10,603 nt of DNA, taken from the UHGV virus genome UHGV-1818536, one strand, 5' to 3'. A program made the position numbers and the translations under genes. This DNA is from a virus. Positions 1,379-10,603 of the stretch are shown in pieces; positions within the stretch are counted from its first letter, which is position 1, and each line of letters begins with the position of its first letter. Under the pieces are notes generated by a model, which saw only the letters and a list, made by a program, of their open reading frames with translations, did not search any database and was not told the DNA's origin.

Positions 1379-2796
1379 TACTCAATCCTTATCTGGCAGC
1401 CTGACAGAGTGACAGGTGACTTCGTGATAACGCGCAATTTGAAGCCGACATTTTTCCTGATGCGCCCTACTCGCTTCCACAAAACGCGTTTGTCGTAAAC
1501 GAACGGTTCATTCTGCTCAATCATCTGCTCACGCCCGTAATTGATGCCGTCAGTGGTTGCAGAGAGAAAAAGGCGGTCAGCATACTGCGCAACGCCAGTT
1601 GAAGATTCAACTTCAAGGTCGAAAACTCTGGCGTTATCCGCTTTGAACAACGGAGTAAACAGCAGGTGTTCCTGCTGCTTGTCGTACTGGCTGCTGATAT
1701 CGAACTGCAATTTCCCGGTCACGGATTCCAGCTTATCGCCGCACGTTATCTGATTTCCTTCGTAAATGAAGTCGATAGCGCGGTACACATCGTCATACAG
1801 ACCTGTTTTCAGCACACACCATTGCGGACCATTGGCGCTTGAAGATGCGTCGTACACGAGAACATGGCGTGGAAGGTGGATAATCAGCAACTCATGAGCA
1901 TCAAATCTCAGAGACTCCATCACGCCATCAGCCAGTTCATCAGCAGTGTAGGAGCGTAGTATTTTCTCAATGCTCGCGCTGGCGATTGGTGACACCTGAC
2001 CGGAGCCGATGATGTATACAGACGGCGCACCTGTTGCCGGATTGCTGATGAACGCATACGAATCAGCGAATGGCGTTTTGCAGTAAGTCCCGGCAATGCC
2101 TTTCTGCACCATCAGTGATGGCTGTGCGACATACAAAGCAGCACCAACGGTGGTTGCACCAGTCAGGGAGAAATATTCAATCGTCGATGAACCAAAGCAG
2201 ACGATGAAGTCTCGCCATGTGCCGATACCGATGATGCCGTCCGGCTGCGATTCTGCGCGATATTGTGCGCTGTAACGGTCAGGATGCGATTCGTCTTCAA
2301 GGTCAGTGATAAACCATGAATCAGTGCCGTCTTTTGACCACGCATAACGCCCACGTAAGCGCGTAATGTCGCGGACTGAGCCTAACTCATACTGCGTGAA
2401 TCCGCTGTCTGTAGGCCAGTTTGAGACGGTTTTAACCGTGCCATCATAGCGATACTCGACCAGTTGACCATTAACGCCTACAGCCTGAGATGTCCGTCCA
2501 TGCGCCATTGATACGCGACCACTTCCGGCAACATCACCGACCTCGCTTTCACCCTTATACAGCTTGCCGCCACACACGCGATATACAGCATTCTGCGCCA
2601 TGTTGTACTCGACTCCGCGCGATACACCGTTTACATCAGAGCGTTTGGCAATGCCCGGGAATGAGCGAAGATATCCGCTGCTGTTCAGGATTTCTTTGGG
2701 TGTAGCCAACATATTCACTGGCAGATAGTCGATATAGTCGGCGTTTCGAAAGTCTTTGCCGACACCTTTCATAAGCGGAAGTTGCTGAATCGGCAT
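1378..2796 (-). CDS. 10: P22 gp10-like head-completion / tail-hub protein, 472 aa
   Basis: 472 aa, the length of P22 gp10. It sits between gp4 and the needle gene as in P22. ATG at 2796 overlaps the gp4 stop (TAATG), with GGGAG 6 nt upstream. Confidence 0.9.
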
Positions 2797-3296
2797 TATT
2801 CGCTCCCGTTATCGCAAGGTTCCTTTCGGTGGAAGTAATTCCAACCATTCCACTTCGCCAACTGGTTACCGCTACCAACAGGCATACGGTTTGGATAACC
2901 GGACTTACATTTAGCGGCTTTTGCTCTGTCCATTGCAGACAGTTTGACGAGTCGCTCTTTCCCGTATCTGGCAGTGGTTATAAGTTTTGCAGACGCTTCC
3001 AGCGCATAATCTGGAGCAATGCGGCAGGCAAGGTTGAAAATGACGGCATTGATAGCGTTATTTGATAAACCGTGCTCATCGCCCGGATCTGGAGCGACAT
3101 CTGCATCAGCGAAAATGTAGCCAACGTTGATACCAGGTGACGCATCACCGCCAAGCCATTCAGCCATCATCATTTCAAGGTCGTTGACGCCGTCTTCCAT
3201 AGACTGCGGTTCGACATCGGTTAACGTGGCATTTGATGCCACACCGAGCTTACGTAATGCCGCAAGAACTAAATCACCCTTCGTTGTCAGGTTCAT
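2796..3296 (-). CDS. 4: P22 gp4-like head-completion (portal-binding tail adaptor) protein, 166 aa
   Basis: The ORF track opens this frame at 3365 (189 aa), but the internal ATG at 3296 ([32 protein letters not shown]...) gives 166 aa, the P22 gp4 length, and has AAGGCGG upstream. The 3365 start would overlap the upstream small ORF by ~90 nt. Confidence 0.85.
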
Positions 3297-3504
3297 CTGC
3301 TGCCGCCTTAGGTTTTCGACCAGGCTTTTTACGCTGTTTTTCTTCTGGCTCTGGCTCTGCAACATCCTTCAAAAGGTCATCAGGATGTGAAAACCAACCA
3401 GCATCCAGATATTCCTGAAGCTCTTCGGCTTTCACGATTTCAAAGTCGTAGCCAACGCCTTTCCACTTCTTCATGTCGCCATGACGAAAGATCATGTGTG
3501 TCAT
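3274..3504 (-). CDS. Small hypothetical protein (~76 aa) between coat and gp4, with a charged C-terminal tail ([27 protein letters not shown]); possibly the counterpart of the small ORF reported between genes 5 and 4 in P22
   Basis: The track ORF 3274..3552 begins with GTG overlapping the coat stop. I prefer the ATG at 3504 ([16 protein letters not shown]...), which has a strong GGAG 6 nt upstream and lies just downstream of the post-coat hairpin. Its 3' end overlaps the gp4 start by 23 nt. Coding status is not proven. Confidence 0.45.
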
Positions 3505-3514
3505 GCTTGTCTCC

Positions 3515-3545
3515 AGATAAAAAAGGGAGCCGAAGCTCCCTCTGG
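3515..3545 (-). terminator. Intrinsic-terminator-like hairpin immediately after the coat gene
   Basis: On the minus strand, just after the coat stop: (a)GA-GGGAGC-UUCG-GCUCCC-UUUUUUAU. This is a perfect 6-bp GC-rich stem (extendable to ~9 bp with a G-U pair), a UUCG tetraloop and a U6 tract. Confidence 0.6.
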
Positions 3546-3548
3546 TTA

Positions 3549-4844
3549 TCACGCAGTCTGGTTAGGCAGACCAACACCAATTGCCTCTGGTCGTACAGCA
3601 CATGCTGAATACCACACAGCAATACGGCACTTACCAGACAGAGTGTTGATATCACCCTGCGTTGCGAAGATGCCGTTAACACCAATACCTGGAATGCTGA
3701 AGGAAGACGTTTTCATGCCAGCAAACAGTTCATGGGTTACCGGGATCGGCTGAGACAGCAGACGGATTGAGTCATCAGCCCAGAACACGTTAGCGGTGGT
3801 TGTTGCCACGTTCAGAACGTTTACCGGAGTGGTATCAGCAAGAGAGGTGTTTACGTTAGCGTAAGCCTTCTCTTCTTTTGTCAGTGACGCGTCATCCAGC
3901 GCAATCGGCTTCGGCGTGATTTCGATGTGAGTACCATCGATCACACGGGTGATTGAGAAAGTAGCATCATCAGTCAGCACGTTCTTCGCCATCTGAGACA
4001 GGAATTTCACACCAGTGAAGCTGATTTTGTCGCCGCGCTTAAATCCGGTGGTGGAGGATACGGTCACCGTTGCAACACGGTTGTCGACGTTCTCTTTGTT
4101 ACCATCGGTATCAAGGGTGTATGCCTGCGGCTTAAACTTCTGCGCACCAGAAACAGTTACACCAGTAGCGGTTGACTTGGTAACTGCCGGAAGTTTCGGT
4201 GAGCGAAGAATTTCATCAAAGCCAGCAATCTGACGCTGAATAGTACCGTTGCGATACGCTTCTTCAGGAACGCGACCGAAGATGTCACCATCTACCAGGT
4301 TGCGGCCTGCTTTGCGGTAATCGTCAGGGTTCAGGAAGTAACTGATGCCCATATCGCGGTTTAGCTCACGGGAGAACATCAGGCGCTCTGCATCAGACAC
4401 AAAATCCCAGCCAGACAGGCCAGTAGATGGACCAATTGCGCGGGTATCGTGAACAACAAGCGAGCCCATTTCAGTTGCCTGTTTGGCAATCGCTGACTCA
4501 ATGTTATTCGCCAGTTTTTTGGCGGATGCCTGGATGCGGCGACGGTAAGAACGCTCATCACGCAGGTCATCTGCACGAAGCTCGAAGAAATCGTTATCCG
4601 GATCGCCCATGTTGCATTTCACGGAGAGCTCCAGAATCCCGGTAGCGTTGCCAGTTAAATCCCAGCCAGTCTGAGTTGGCGCTTCCTGCTCAACAGGCAT
4701 CCACACGGTGTTGCTTGAACGTTGCATGGATTCTGCCGGAGGGGTGTATTTTGTCACTTTGGACGCCATTGGCGTCAGGTTCTGGACGGTTTCGATGATT
4801 TCATCCAGAGCATACGTGACCAGTTGACCTTCATTTAATGCCAT
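3549..4844 (-). CDS. 5: Major capsid (coat) protein, P22 gp5-like, 431 aa
   Basis: 431 aa versus 430 aa for P22 gp5, with the recognisable start [27 protein letters not shown]... It follows the scaffold gene directly with a TAATG overlap, and AAGGA lies ~9 nt upstream. Confidence 0.95.
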
Positions 4845-5768: not shown

Positions 5769-7934
5769 TTATTGAGGTGTCTCGGCTACTCCGCCGGAGG
5801 GGATTTGAACTTGACGCATAAGATTCGCGAAATCCATGCGTTGTGAATGAGTCTGGTCTGCATCTTTAAGAAGCAGCTCAGCGTTAGCACGAGCATCTTT
5901 GCTGCGCTGTTGCTGGAATTGACCTACGAGCTTGAGGTACTCACGCAGTTCTGCCTGCTTGTCGAGGTCCATATTGTTGAAGATTTCTGCAATCTTCGCG
6001 GCGTTGAGTTGGTTTTGGGCTTCAACCTTGGCAGCTTCAACCTGAATCTGCGCCTGTTGGTTCTCTGCCTTGAGCAATTCAGCCTGACCTTGCAGAAGGA
6101 TACCCTGCGCCTGAATTTGCTCTGCTGATGGCTGCTGCGGCTGTTGTTGTGCCTGCTGTACCATCTCCATCTCTTCAGGTGTTTCTGGTTTCTTCAGCCC
6201 CATCATCACCAGTTGCTTGTTCGCGTACTCTCGCATCATCTCGACGCCTTTACCGTCAAGCAGCGTGAAGTATTGCAGCATCAGCATCTGGAACTCTGGA
6301 GTACCTTGCGGAACCTTGGTGAGCAACTCCTGAATCTCTGCGCGGTTCTGTTCCTTCATACTCTGGAAGGATGGTCCAACGTCTGTATAGCACTCATAGC
6401 GACCGCGAATGTCGTTGAGTGTGACCACATTGCCGGACTGGTAATCGACAACTTGCGCATAGAGTTGAACGTCTTTCTCGCTTCCATCTTCAAGTGTCAG
6501 CGTTACATGACGAGGAACGTCATAAATATCGTTGACCATTGAGGCATAAATCTCGCCATCACGTCGCATTGCGGTAGCCAGGTTATCCTGAAACACGTAT
6601 GTCTCAAGGTCTGCCCGCATGTTCAGTTGATTGACGGTATCGAAAGCGACCTGAGAGTTTGCTGCCTGCGCATCCACACCAAGACTAGCCACCTCTTTCA
6701 CTGCGTTGGTGGCAGCCTCAAGCATGTAAGCGTTGGCTTGCGGCACTTCAGGGTTTTCCATGTAGGAGATTGGACCAATCGGCAGGTCGTTACCGTTTTC
6801 ATCGGTCTTGTTCTGCAGATAGTACGGATAGTCATCATTTCCACCGTACATGTATTCGTAGCCTTCGATTTGCTCAGGGAAGAAGGTCGGTTTCTTCTTC
6901 GGTGAACGAGCAACAATATCGGCGTTGAATGACATGATCATGTTACGAAGGCGCTGACCGTCTTTCGTCAGCCTTACCACTCCTTCGTAGCACTCCTTGT
7001 CACCAGCGAATGACCATTCGCCATACACTGGAACGATTGGGATATGCTCTCCGGCTATCTTCTCGCGGTCTTTCAGTATCTGCGTGCAGGTGATGATCGA
7101 CTTATACACACGCCGACGCTTCACCTTGCGCTCTGCTACCTTAATGAATCCACGATTAGCCAGGTCGTCGATGACGTCTTTGATATCCTGCTGGTAATAG
7201 CTGACCGGCTCACCTGTCAGCGGGTCGCGGTAGATGAAGACTTTCTCTTTCTTCTCTTCGACCTCGTAATACTCAGCGACGTAGACGACATCATTCGATA
7301 CCCACGGAAACAGCCATGTATCGTTCGGATTCTGGAAAGATGGCAAGGTGTCCGGATCAATACCGTAATCCTCTGCGAACTCTTTCCAGCCATTGCGCGA
7401 CAAGGCGTTAATCACCGTGCAGTGCTTAGCGTCGCTCTTATCCATCTGCTTGCTGTTGGCGTCCCATATGACGTGTGAGCAGGCTTCATGAATTGGCAGG
7501 CGTCGAATTACCTGATTGTTGCTTGTTGGATCGTTGTCTTCGTACTGCGTGACCAGACGCCATGCACCAACGCCGGACTCTATCTGCTCACGAACGCCAA
7601 CGTTAACGGCAATCTTTGCCGTGTTATGGCGCATATCAGTACGATACATCCCCATCAACACATCGGCAGCATCAGGATTAGCGCCGTCTTTGGGTCGGAA
7701 GAGAACGTCGATAGGGTTCCGGCGCATCTCTGCGACCAGTTTCCTGACCACCGGGCGAACAACATCGAATTGTCCGCGATATTGCAGGGTGGTGTAGTTT
7801 GATAGCCAGTCATCCCATTGCGACACTCGGCTAAAATACAGGTCATTTGTCGCCTCGGTTCTGGCTTCATCGCTCGCCATCCAGTCCGCGTCAAACTTGC
7901 ACAGAATGGAATTGAGTCTGTTTTCGTCGGCCAT
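5769..7934 (-). CDS. 1: Portal protein, P22 gp1-like, 721 aa
   Basis: 721 aa versus 725 aa for P22 gp1, with start [18 protein letters not shown]... and a Gln-rich, long-helix C-terminal ~120 aa typical of the P22 portal barrel. ATG at 7934 directly follows the large-terminase stop (TAAATG), with GGAG 7 nt upstream. Confidence 0.95.
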
Positions 7935-9935: not shown

Positions 9936-10178
9936 TCATGCTCCGGTGGTGAACAGGTCTAACGCTTCCTTCGATTTACGCACCGCTTCGAATGTGCGGA
10001 TCGTGATATCTGAATTAGCGCCGCCTGACTGGAAGTGAATTTTGAATAGCTCAAGCTTCAGCTCGTCAGTGCCAATGAATTGAAATGCTTCCTCTGCGGC
10101 TGCGTTCTGGTTCATGACCAGTTTGTAAATCTCTAACTGGAATTTCTGTTCTTCAGTCATGGGAATAATCTCTGCCAT
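9936..10178 (-). CDS. Conserved hypothetical protein, 80 aa, immediately upstream of terS (position and length match the 'orf80' of P22-like phages as I recall it)
   Basis: ATG at 10178 with GGAG 6-7 nt upstream. The protein MAEIIPMTEEQKFQLEIYKLVMNQNAAAEEAFQFIGTDELKLELFKIHF... is small, acidic and helical. It lies in the same orientation as terS, 29 nt upstream of it. Confidence 0.7.
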   Translation of the reverse strand: MAEIIPMTEEQKFQLEIYKLVMNQNAAAEEAFQFIGTDELKLELFKIHFQSGGANSDITIRTFEAVRKSKEALDLFTTGA

Positions 10179-10282: not shown

Positions 10283-10312
10283 AATAAAAAAGGCCGCCTG
10301 AGCGACCTTTCA
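10283..10312 (-). terminator. Strong rho-independent terminator on the minus strand, with a T-rich tract on the plus side as well (possibly bidirectional)
   Basis: Minus strand: UGA(stop)-AAGGUCGC-UCAG-GCGGCCUU-UUUUAUU, an 8-bp stem (with one U-G pair) followed by a U-run. On the plus strand the same hairpin is followed by TTTCATTTTTCAT. The stop codon of the upstream ORF is embedded in the stem base. Confidence 0.6.
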
Positions 10313-10603
10313 TTTTTCATCCGTTTTAATCATCTGGGTAATTAAGCGGCATCCAGTGTGTAACCTTGCTTGCTCCTGAATCGATGAATGCCTTGGTTCT
10401 CTGCCAGTAAGAGCCCATACATGATAGTTTGAACACGTCACCAGTTCCAGGATAAGATCACTCTCTTTTTCCACAACACCCTTTTCTGGCACCGCAGCTC
10501 CGGTTTCGGACGGCTTTGGCATACCTCCAGCCAGCCTGTCTTCCGCTTCCTGTTTTTCCGCTTCCATCCGCTTCTTCACCTGGAATACCGCCGTCTCCAG
10601 CAC
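10310..10603 (-). CDS. 3' end of an upstream ORF truncated by the window edge (at least 97 codons); product unknown
   Basis: The frame is open from the window edge to the TGA at 10312-10310. The 'M' in the track is a GTG at the edge, so the true start is almost certainly beyond the window. In P22-like phages this position holds late-region accessory genes between the lysis cassette and terS, but I could not recognise the sequence. Confidence 0.4.
   Translation of the reverse strand: MLETAVFQVKKRMEAEKQEAEDRLAGGMPKPSETGAAVPEKGVVEKESDLILELVTCSNYHVWALTGREPRHSSIQEQARLHTGCRLITQMIKTDEK

Follow-up and report, generated by a model that had tools for sequence, protein, structure and literature searches.

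A terminator-like UUCG hairpin conserved directly after the coat gene of a P22-like E. coli prophage

Gene content around the coat gene

The stretch of DNA analysed here (the window) comprises 10,603 nucleotides of the virus genome UHGV-1818536, and its source element is a P22-like E. coli prophage. The coat open reading frame (ORF) and all long or late ORFs of the window are encoded on the minus strand and follow the order of a P22-type late operon (Table 1). The coat protein showed 99% identity to those of the E. coli phages IME10, Bas106 and Dewey, and 73% identity to P22 gp5 over the full length. At the DNA level, the region of the hairpin described below shares 96-99% identity with eight E. 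coli phages of the Lederbergvirus type, and it was found in 217 of 5,426 complete E. coli genomes, 174 of the complete genomes having the region in its full length of 201 nt.

Bas106, with 98.4% identity in the region of the hairpin, carries on a single strand a Q-like gene, followed by two tRNA genes, the lysis cassette and then the head genes. An earlier note on this DNA, made from the sequence alone, had assumed that the late operon is antiterminated. The window ends downstream of the place where a Q-type gene would lie; the assumption is in line with the Q-like antiterminator gene that heads the same one-directional operon in this close relative.

The coat gene is followed by a gap of 44 nt, which is among the few true gaps of the operon, the other genes overlapping or abutting each other. 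The first gene beyond the hairpin is a 76-aa ORF, not gp4. Its start is the same as the one annotated in APC_JM3.2 and Bas106, and it occupies the place of P22 orf69, L orf186 and epsilon34 gene 6. The 3' end of this ORF overlaps the start of gp4, and relatives carry an annotated 501-nt gene, named gp4 or Ad3, at the gp4 position. The earlier note had placed the hairpin ahead of gp4, gp10 and the needle gene; it does lie upstream of all three, but the intervening 76-aa ORF had been overlooked.

Table 1. Features of the window around the post-coat hairpin, with the genes of the late operon
Feature	Position	Strand	Basis
Small terminase	9906-9412	-	ORF list
Large terminase	9434-7935	-	ORF list
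Portal	7934-5769	-	ORF list
Scaffold	5755-4844	-	ORF list
Coat (major capsid), P22 gp5 family, 431 aa	4844-3549	-	ORF list; annotated as coat or head protein in relatives
Tandem in-frame stops TGA (3551-3549) and TAA (3548-3546), coat end ...GCG TGA TAA	3546..3551	-	sequence
RNA hairpin AGAGGGAGC-UUCG-GCUCCCUUU	3543-3522	-	terminator scan, RNAfold, covariation
U-tract UUUUUUAU	3517..3524	-	sequence; T-tail score 3.05
Shine-Dalgarno GGAG of the 76-aa ORF, 6 nt ahead of ATG	3511..3514	-	sequence; unpaired in local fold
76-aa ORF, ATG at 3504	3274..3504	-	phrog_1175 (function unknown), E = 1e-37
gp4 homologue (head-tail adaptor), 166 aa from ATG at 3296	2796..3296	-	frame arithmetic
gp10	2796-1378	-	ORF list; annotated in close relatives
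Needle with knob domain, 317 aa	1378-425	-	ORF list

Structure of the post-coat hairpin

The hairpin starts 5 nt past the coat TGA, lies within the intergenic gap and has the same orientation as the gene. Its two arms, AGAGGGAGC (3543-3535) and GCUCCCUUU (3530-3522), enclose a UUCG loop (3534-3531) and form nine pairs, of which five are G-C, three A-U and one G-U. The core is a 6-bp helix GGGAGC/GCUCCC (3540-3525) that is closed as C(UUCG)G. This core is directly abutted by the U-tract UUUUUUAU, which the terminator scan accepted as a T tail. Six consecutive U residues (3524-3519) overlap the end of the stem, and the first three of them are also able to pair with AGA at 3543-3541; A and U come next (to 3517), then CU before the GGAG of the following ORF.

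Folding of positions 3552-3505 with RNAfold gave -18.0 kcal/mol and a z-score of -3.0, and none of 200 dinucleotide shuffles was as stable; the stem alone reached -14.3 kcal/mol. The terminator-shaped UUCG hairpin with U-tract that the earlier note had reported after the coat gene is confirmed. The coordinates given there were correct, but the strand, which had not been stated, is the minus strand. The element has the stem, the U-tract and the position after a stop codon that define a rho-independent terminator at the sequence level, and we consider the hairpin real and functional-looking. When the palindrome is read on the plus strand it is followed by a poor T tail, TCTGGTTATC, and the hairpin should therefore act in the direction of the genes only. 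A bidirectional terminator, as annotated on both strands in phage L, could be ruled out here for the same reason.

Several other assignments were considered and rejected. An outer helix between CCAGA (3547-3543) and UCUGG (3516-3512), which would sequester the Shine-Dalgarno sequence, is found in the minimum free energy fold of 131 nt and is absent from the centroid. This helix is not conserved: UCUGG is replaced by UAUGG or AUUGG in close relatives, where the pairing is broken, and other clades have no counterpart. An RNase III site was ruled out, as 9 bp are generally too short for this enzyme. As the variable small ORF follows the hairpin instead of preceding it, the terminator of a moron was excluded; this ORF overlaps gp4 and has no terminator of its own. 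An Rfam 15 scan of the whole window matched no family at the gathering score.

A generic terminator scan of the window gave nine sites against ten expected from shuffles, and thus no enrichment, the post-coat hairpin having the longest stem (nine pairs). In a separate scan, 176 gene-strand hairpins were filtered by a cut-off of dG <= -14 kcal/mol together with a strong T tail. Only two of them passed, the post-coat hairpin and one at 10311-10288, both of which are intergenic, and the T-tail score of the former is the highest among the stable gene-strand hairpins. The late operon in the whole genome of Bas106 likewise has only two strong intergenic terminator-like hairpins, located after the lysis cassette and after the coat gene.

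Conservation and covariation

Among the phages and prophages examined, the hairpin is nearly universal after coat genes of the P22 family, which come from many host genera and represent two divergent types of coat. All 80 IMG/VR relatives, which are contigs encoding a practically identical coat, carry it. Their 6-bp core does not vary, and variation was seen in the loop (UUCU, UUUG, UUAG), in the weak outer pairs and in the length of the U run. About a fifth of them carry a different downstream ORF, and at this mosaic joint homology ends directly 3' of the T tract. The same break was observed in about 40 complete E. coli genomes, in which the matches end at nt 131 of the query, and between the Salmonella phages P22 and L.

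A scan of one genome per species yielded 23 full-length prophage loci with coats at 65-86% identity. Two of these loci belong to E. coli/Shigella, and the host genera of the remainder are Citrobacter, Buttiauxella, Kluyvera, Tatumella, Symbiopectobacterium, Rahnella, Pantoea, Rosenbergiella, Providencia, Proteus, Morganella, Xenorhabdus, Pseudescherichia and others. A GC-rich tetraloop hairpin was found in 22 of the 23 loci, the exception being a frameshifted copy in Erwinia. The spacer between stop codon and stem varies from 2 to 21 nt in these loci and is itself not conserved. Nearly all relatives have a T-rich tail followed by GGAG or GAGG. The earlier note had named absence from close relatives as an observation that would speak against the element; the 80 contigs, the 22 loci and the compensatory changes given below show the opposite.

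An equivalent hairpin is also carried by P22, L, SEN22, BTP1 and the Proteus phage Brookers. With coats of the Sf6 type (~25% identity), it is present in Sf101 and in the LF82 prophage Gally, and the Pseudomonas phage AH02 (coat 31% identity) has a hairpin with a GAAA loop. In the E. coli phage Sortsne an unrelated hairpin is followed by eight U. At least one coat relative, the Ralstonia phage Firinga, has no hairpin at this place, from which it follows that the element is dispensable. Judged by the gaps between annotated genes, Brookers and AH02 also seemed to lack it. This was wrong, since the annotated ORFs start too early and span the hairpin, and several database ORF calls that span it are probably wrong.

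Covariation was analysed in 27 distinct sequences that were gap-free on the loop; AH02 was left out, having been mis-registered by MAFFT. The aligned sequences are related and their stem types cluster by clade, so the following counts reflect few independent events: pair 12-21 occurs as G-C in 16 sequences, as A-U in ten and as G-U in one; pair 9-24 as G-C in 11, as A-U in nine and as U-A in two; and pair 14-19 as C-G in 25 and as U-A in one. Paired cells amounted to 83%, compared with 35-65% when the partners were slid, and none of 500 shuffles matched the observed pairing or covariation score. RNAalifold independently yielded the 6-bp core with three compensatory pairs. These compensatory changes, together with the non-conserved flanks, show that it is the fold, rather than the sequence, that is under selection. 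In 22 of the 27 sequences the loop is UUCG, and GAAA occurs in one of the 27, as it does in AH02. UUCG and GAAA represent the two classes of unusually stable tetraloops, and UUCG loops are over-represented in E. coli terminators.

Counterparts in P22, L and lambda

The element is already known in P22 and its relatives. BK000583, a third-party reference annotation of P22, contains a stem_loop feature at 6102..6119 with the remark 'putative; similar in location to stem-loops in phage HK97 and phage lambda', and in AF527608 the P22 element is labelled 'RNA stem-loop'. A terminator is annotated at the same place in phages L, ST64T-like, g341c, Emek and MG40, with AY795968 and MW013502/3 among the records, and the P22 and L counterparts were annotated by independent curators. 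In the genome paper of phage L, the role of the stem-loop is given as unknown, and two options are proposed, partial termination or the halting of spurious, non-antiterminated transcription (PMC8022706). The idea put forward in the earlier note is essentially this speculation. New in the present analysis are the near-universality of the hairpin, the compensatory change, the recurrent mosaic joint and the modest drops in expression, which vary with condition, in two public data sets. No Term-seq or 3'-end mapping was found in the literature for any P22-like phage.

The stem-loop of P22 and L is positioned as in the window, 5 nt past the orthologous coat stop and ahead of a variable small ORF and gp4, and the gene order scaffold-coat-hairpin-small ORF-gp4-gp10 is common to the window, P22, L and BTP1. 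Like the window's element, it consists of five to six GC-rich pairs with a C(UNCG)G tetraloop, followed by a U-rich tail and the Shine-Dalgarno sequence of the next ORF. The stems differ, being GGGAGC/GCUCCC in the window and GGGGC/GCCCC in P22 and L, so that the window has an additional A-U pair besides a compensatory difference. Its U run (UUUUUUAU) is cleaner than that of P22 and L (UUUCUUUAU), and the small ORF downstream is a different mosaic variant from that of P22 and L.

In lambda, a hairpin AUGGCCC-UUCG-GGGCCAU is located 3 nt past the stop of gene E, inside the Q-antiterminated late operon, and is followed by a U-rich stretch and the Shine-Dalgarno sequence of Fi. Its U tail is interrupted (UGUUUCUCU), unlike that of the window. 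The lambda capsid gene is not recognisably related, and the lambda hairpin is therefore a positional analogue rather than an orthologue. The parallel with the stem-loop after the HK97 capsid gene is known here only from the remark in BK000583.

Expression across the hairpin in BTP1 and Gally

Published per-gene RNA-seq tables were re-analysed for two highly spontaneously induced P22-like prophages, BTP1 and Gally, which are relatives of the window's phage and not that phage itself. The data consist of low counts per gene and derive from lysogen cultures rather than from synchronised induction.

BTP1 carries the hairpin AGGGGC-UUCG-GCCCCU in the gene order of the window. The ratio of coat to next-gene TPM had a geometric mean of 1.57 and was above 1 in 16 of 17 conditions (PMC7067206 supplement). 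Its range was 1.2 to 2.2 across the eight conditions in which late genes were most highly expressed, seven of them giving values of about 1.7-2.2. Drops also occur in BTP1 at junctions without a comparable hairpin, namely 1.95-fold from gp10 to gp26 and 1.54-fold from holin to lysozyme. The BTP1 tables list no ncRNA at the 3' end of the coat gene.

In Gally, a prophage of E. coli LF82, the hairpin is AAGGGGC-UUAC-GCCCCUU, followed by UUAUGUUUU. Reads per kb were 1.6- to 3.9-fold higher for coat than for gp4 in four conditions (PMC9928086 S4). In individual samples the excess of coat over gp10 was about 3- to 22-fold. Relative to scaffold, coat was 2.6- to 41-fold higher in those four conditions, which suggests a coat-specific transcript. 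The profile was flat in stationary LB, with a coat/gp4 ratio of about 1.0, as expected for read-through. The strongest drop across the hairpin (61-74%) was observed in macrophages, in which the lytic cycle is blocked and the coat gene was transcribed 17- to 41-fold above scaffold.

The step in expression after the coat gene that the earlier note had predicted is thus seen at the gene level in both prophages, but it is absent in one condition and is matched at junctions that have no hairpin. The drops fit a leaky terminator or a 3' stabiliser. Such a pattern is to be expected if the hairpin stops unmodified polymerase and lets polymerase modified by Q pass.

Proposed role of the hairpin

We interpret the hairpin as a canonical rho-independent terminator and 3'-end hairpin which bounds the scaffold-coat segment and which is leaky, giving a few-fold excess of coat mRNA, and assign this reading a probability of roughly 0.6. 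The procapsid genes of the late operon (scaffold and coat) would have their 3' limit at the hairpin. Polymerase without a Q-type modification, coming from weak internal promoters or from complexes that have lost the modification, would stop in the U-tract; judging from the general behaviour of intrinsic terminators, 3' ends are expected at about 3518-3516. Q-modified polymerase would terminate weakly and for the most part continue into the small ORF and on through gp4, gp10 and the needle gene. RNAs that end at the hairpin, either by termination or by trimming after cleavage, may be shielded from 3'-exonucleases by the C(UUCG)G stem-loop. The net outcome would be coat mRNA at about 1.5- to 4-fold the level of the distal head-completion genes. 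In this scheme we infer termination itself, the difference between modified and unmodified polymerase, and the stabilisation of the RNA. A ribosome terminating at the coat stop, 5 nt from the stem, could hinder the folding of the hairpin.

In P22 particles, coat is present in several hundred subunits, and gp4 and gp10 each in about a dozen copies. The earlier note had suggested that the hairpin helps to set the ratio of coat to completion proteins; a drop of ~1.6- to 4-fold is far too small to account by itself for several hundred versus about 12 copies. As the effect on mRNA is few-fold, translation must supply most of the difference in protein ratio. Polymerase modified by Q is expected to ignore such terminators, as known for lambda Q, and the effect during the lytic cycle may therefore be small.

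The hairpin might instead serve only for safety, stopping stray non-antiterminated transcription in the lysogen or in early infection and leaving lytic stoichiometry unaffected. Any transcripts that start at internal promoters of the capsid cluster would thereby not reach the genes for head completion and injection. The phage L paper names this function as one of two options (PMC8022706), and it is in line with Gally, in which the drop was strongest in macrophages under a blocked lytic cycle and disappeared in stationary LB. In BTP1, however, the step is largest in the conditions of strongest expression of the entire late operon and so resembles an effect of induction, and the harm that a low level of gp4, gp10 or needle would do is not obvious. 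The proposal also overlaps heavily with the leaky terminator and differs from it only in which effect was selected; on its own we consider it unlikely. It is more doubtful still that the hairpin is purely a 3' stabiliser. Read-through would then be complete, as the Q context predicts, RNase E would cut in the AU-rich single-stranded stretch that is indeed present past the hairpin, and the hairpin would block 3'->5' exonucleases, so that the scaffold-coat segment outlives the distal one in the manner of the intercistronic hairpins of malEFG and puf. The extreme stability of the structure, with its C(UUCG)G loop in 22 of 27 distinct sequences, would suit this function, and a modest step is consistent with differential decay. 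Against it stands the T-rich tail that abuts the stem and is conserved in nearly all relatives, which would be needless for blocking an exonuclease; moreover, the downstream fragment would have the hairpin close to its own 5' end and could be stabilised by it as well.

A role in translation appears very improbable. The element could uncouple coat ribosomes from the next ORF, which would thereby gain its own initiation rate, or it could offer a U-rich landing site for S1 ahead of the downstream start. The rarity of a 44-nt gap among overlapping or abutting genes, and the T-rich tail, to which a GGAG or GAGG is directly joined in nearly all relatives, point in this direction. However, the Shine-Dalgarno sequence is unpaired in the local fold, the CCAGA/UCUGG pairing that would cover part of it is broken in close relatives and absent in other clades, the distance from stop to stem ranges from 2 to 21 nt, and uncoupling does not need a GC-rich tetraloop hairpin. 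It is hardly credible that the element acts at the DNA level or is neutral, as a conserved linker at the boundary of recombining modules or as a chance palindrome without RNA function. The mosaic homology does stop directly 3' of the T tract, both in E. coli and between P22 and L, but pairing is preserved by compensatory changes as the sequence changes, hairpins without homology to this one follow unrelated capsid genes at the corresponding position (Sortsne, lambda), the T tail is strand-specific, and 0/200 shuffles folded equally well.

The Gally data raise a further reading, which seems rather remote to us: a discrete, Q-independent coat transcript that ends at the hairpin, or a terminator that prevails in part over Q antitermination. 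If true, the hairpin would bound a separately regulated unit that provides coat protein or a coat-derived RNA outside lytic growth. Were such a coat-only RNA general in P22-like prophages, the hairpin would be more than a tuning knob of the late operon.

Comparison with other systems and significance

Leaky terminators after the major coat gene are found in T7 (T-phi after gene 10) and in f1/M13 (after gene VIII). As in the leaky terminator proposed here, they are located right after the most abundant structural gene, whose transcripts consequently exceed the distal ones. Transcription in these systems, unlike that of the P22-type operon, depends on a phage-encoded RNA polymerase (T7) or on a promoter cascade (f1) rather than on an antiterminated host polymerase, and termination was measured there. 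Stabilising hairpins inside operons are represented by the REP elements of malEFG and, in the puf operon of Rhodobacter, by intercistronic hairpins. They resemble the post-coat hairpin in that a stable hairpin ends a segment needed in larger amount, with a several-fold difference in mRNA expected. They differ in having neither U-tract nor termination, and an effect on half-life was shown there, whereas the evidence here consists of gene-level steps in relatives. Weak terminators tune phage operons generally (PMC9163698).

With hundreds of coat subunits required for every dozen copies of the completion proteins, and one long transcript to supply them, a contribution of the hairpin to meeting this demand is plausible. 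The element also bears on a small, long-standing question, namely how intrinsic terminators behave inside Q-antiterminated operons. IME10, APC_JM3.2 and Bas106, the closest relatives from E. coli, have no annotation of the element in their records; the practical value of the present results is one of annotation, the element being one to be marked in P22-like prophages of E. coli.

Mosaicism downstream of the coat gene

Comparison of the coat gene region with related loci revealed a recurrent mosaic joint directly 3' of the T tract that follows the UUCG hairpin, at approximately 3510-3517 of the window, found in L009, L118 and other compared loci. In these, one coat gene with its hairpin is followed by either of two alternatives, the 76-aa ORF (MTHMIFRHG...) or a different ORF (MSVMIFQAGG...); in strain EC21Z-014 the latter encodes a 'WDGH domain' protein of 195 aa. 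Homology to the window ends at this joint in about 40 complete E. coli genomes, and phages P22 (orf69) and L (orf186) diverge from each other at the same place.

A further rearrangement was found in E. coli CPww7 (NZ_CP075716.1; L117, 2381-2560), in which the block of hairpin, small ORF, gp4 and gp10 is joined to an unrelated tail-fibre fragment ('gp53-like'), itself adjoining a recombinase gene and genes for tail sheath and tail tube. Homology to the window starts here just 15 nt upstream of the coat stop; the rearrangement therefore removed the coat gene and retained its last codons and the hairpin.

The coat, hairpin and small ORF region of the window was also encountered with 100% identity at 1466507-1466707 of NZ_CP026085.1, a record of 4.83 Mb labelled E. 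coli DH5alpha. To our knowledge, such a P22-like prophage is not expected in K-12 cloning strains, and 4.83 Mb exceeds the expected size of a DH5alpha genome. The strain label or the assembly of this record may be wrong.

Gene calls and features of the coat-small ORF region

Several database gene calls extend through the hairpin or across the small ORF (position 2492 in locus L087, 2491 in L088, 1823-1960 in L004 and 2036 in L002). Brookers gp6 and AH02 gp6 have annotated starts upstream of the hairpin, a 'hypothetical protein' call in Louie covers the coat stop together with the hairpin, and the gp4 call of IME10 is lengthened to 606 nt, thereby covering the small ORF. The longest ORF of the window at this place (3552-3274, GTG at 3552) is the same gene-call artefact. 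Within the small ORF, the EPEPEE repeat region carries around 36 extra bases in IME10 and APC_JM3.2, and the record of the latter has a repeat_region annotated there.

Coordinates of additional features in the window
Feature	Position	Strand	Description
Second strong terminator-like hairpin	10288-10311	minus	GAAAGGUCGC-UCAG-GCGGCCUUUU then UUAUUGCC; -14.1 kcal/mol
Tandem in-frame stops	3546-3551		TGA TAA, ending the coat ORF
Length-variable short repeat	3330-3370	minus	GAGCCAGAG/CCAGAAGAA (EPEPEE), inside the 76-aa ORF; 2042-2092 in locus L001
Needle gene	425-1378	minus	317 aa; P22-type N-terminal needle phrog_1219 and C-terminal knob phrog_1030

Two Pseudescherichia prophages (L108, L110) have a triple coat stop, TGA TGA TAA. 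Multiple in-frame stops are consistent with a very heavily translated coat gene.

For Gally, the P22-like prophage of E. coli LF82, the number of reads per kb over the coat gene alone (L121, 24929-26200) in macrophages exceeded that over the adjacent scaffold gene 17- to 41-fold (PMC9928086, Table S4). The coat gene is scored as up-regulated and its neighbours as down-regulated, and the paper makes no comment on the coat-only read excess. This suggests a promoter inside the coat gene or just upstream of it, active without the lytic programme.

Second hairpin and needle gene

The second hairpin of the late operon overlaps the stop codon of a truncated ORF (10603..10310), for which PHROG gave no match, and an 80-aa phrog_571 ORF (10178..9936) lies 110 nt downstream of it. 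A comparable hairpin is located 3' of the lysis cassette in Bas106 (37765-37784).

The gp26 needle of P22 is shorter than the needle protein of the window and is not known to carry a knob. Gally encodes a protein of equal length (317 aa), whose annotation reads Sf6-type tail needle knob protein.
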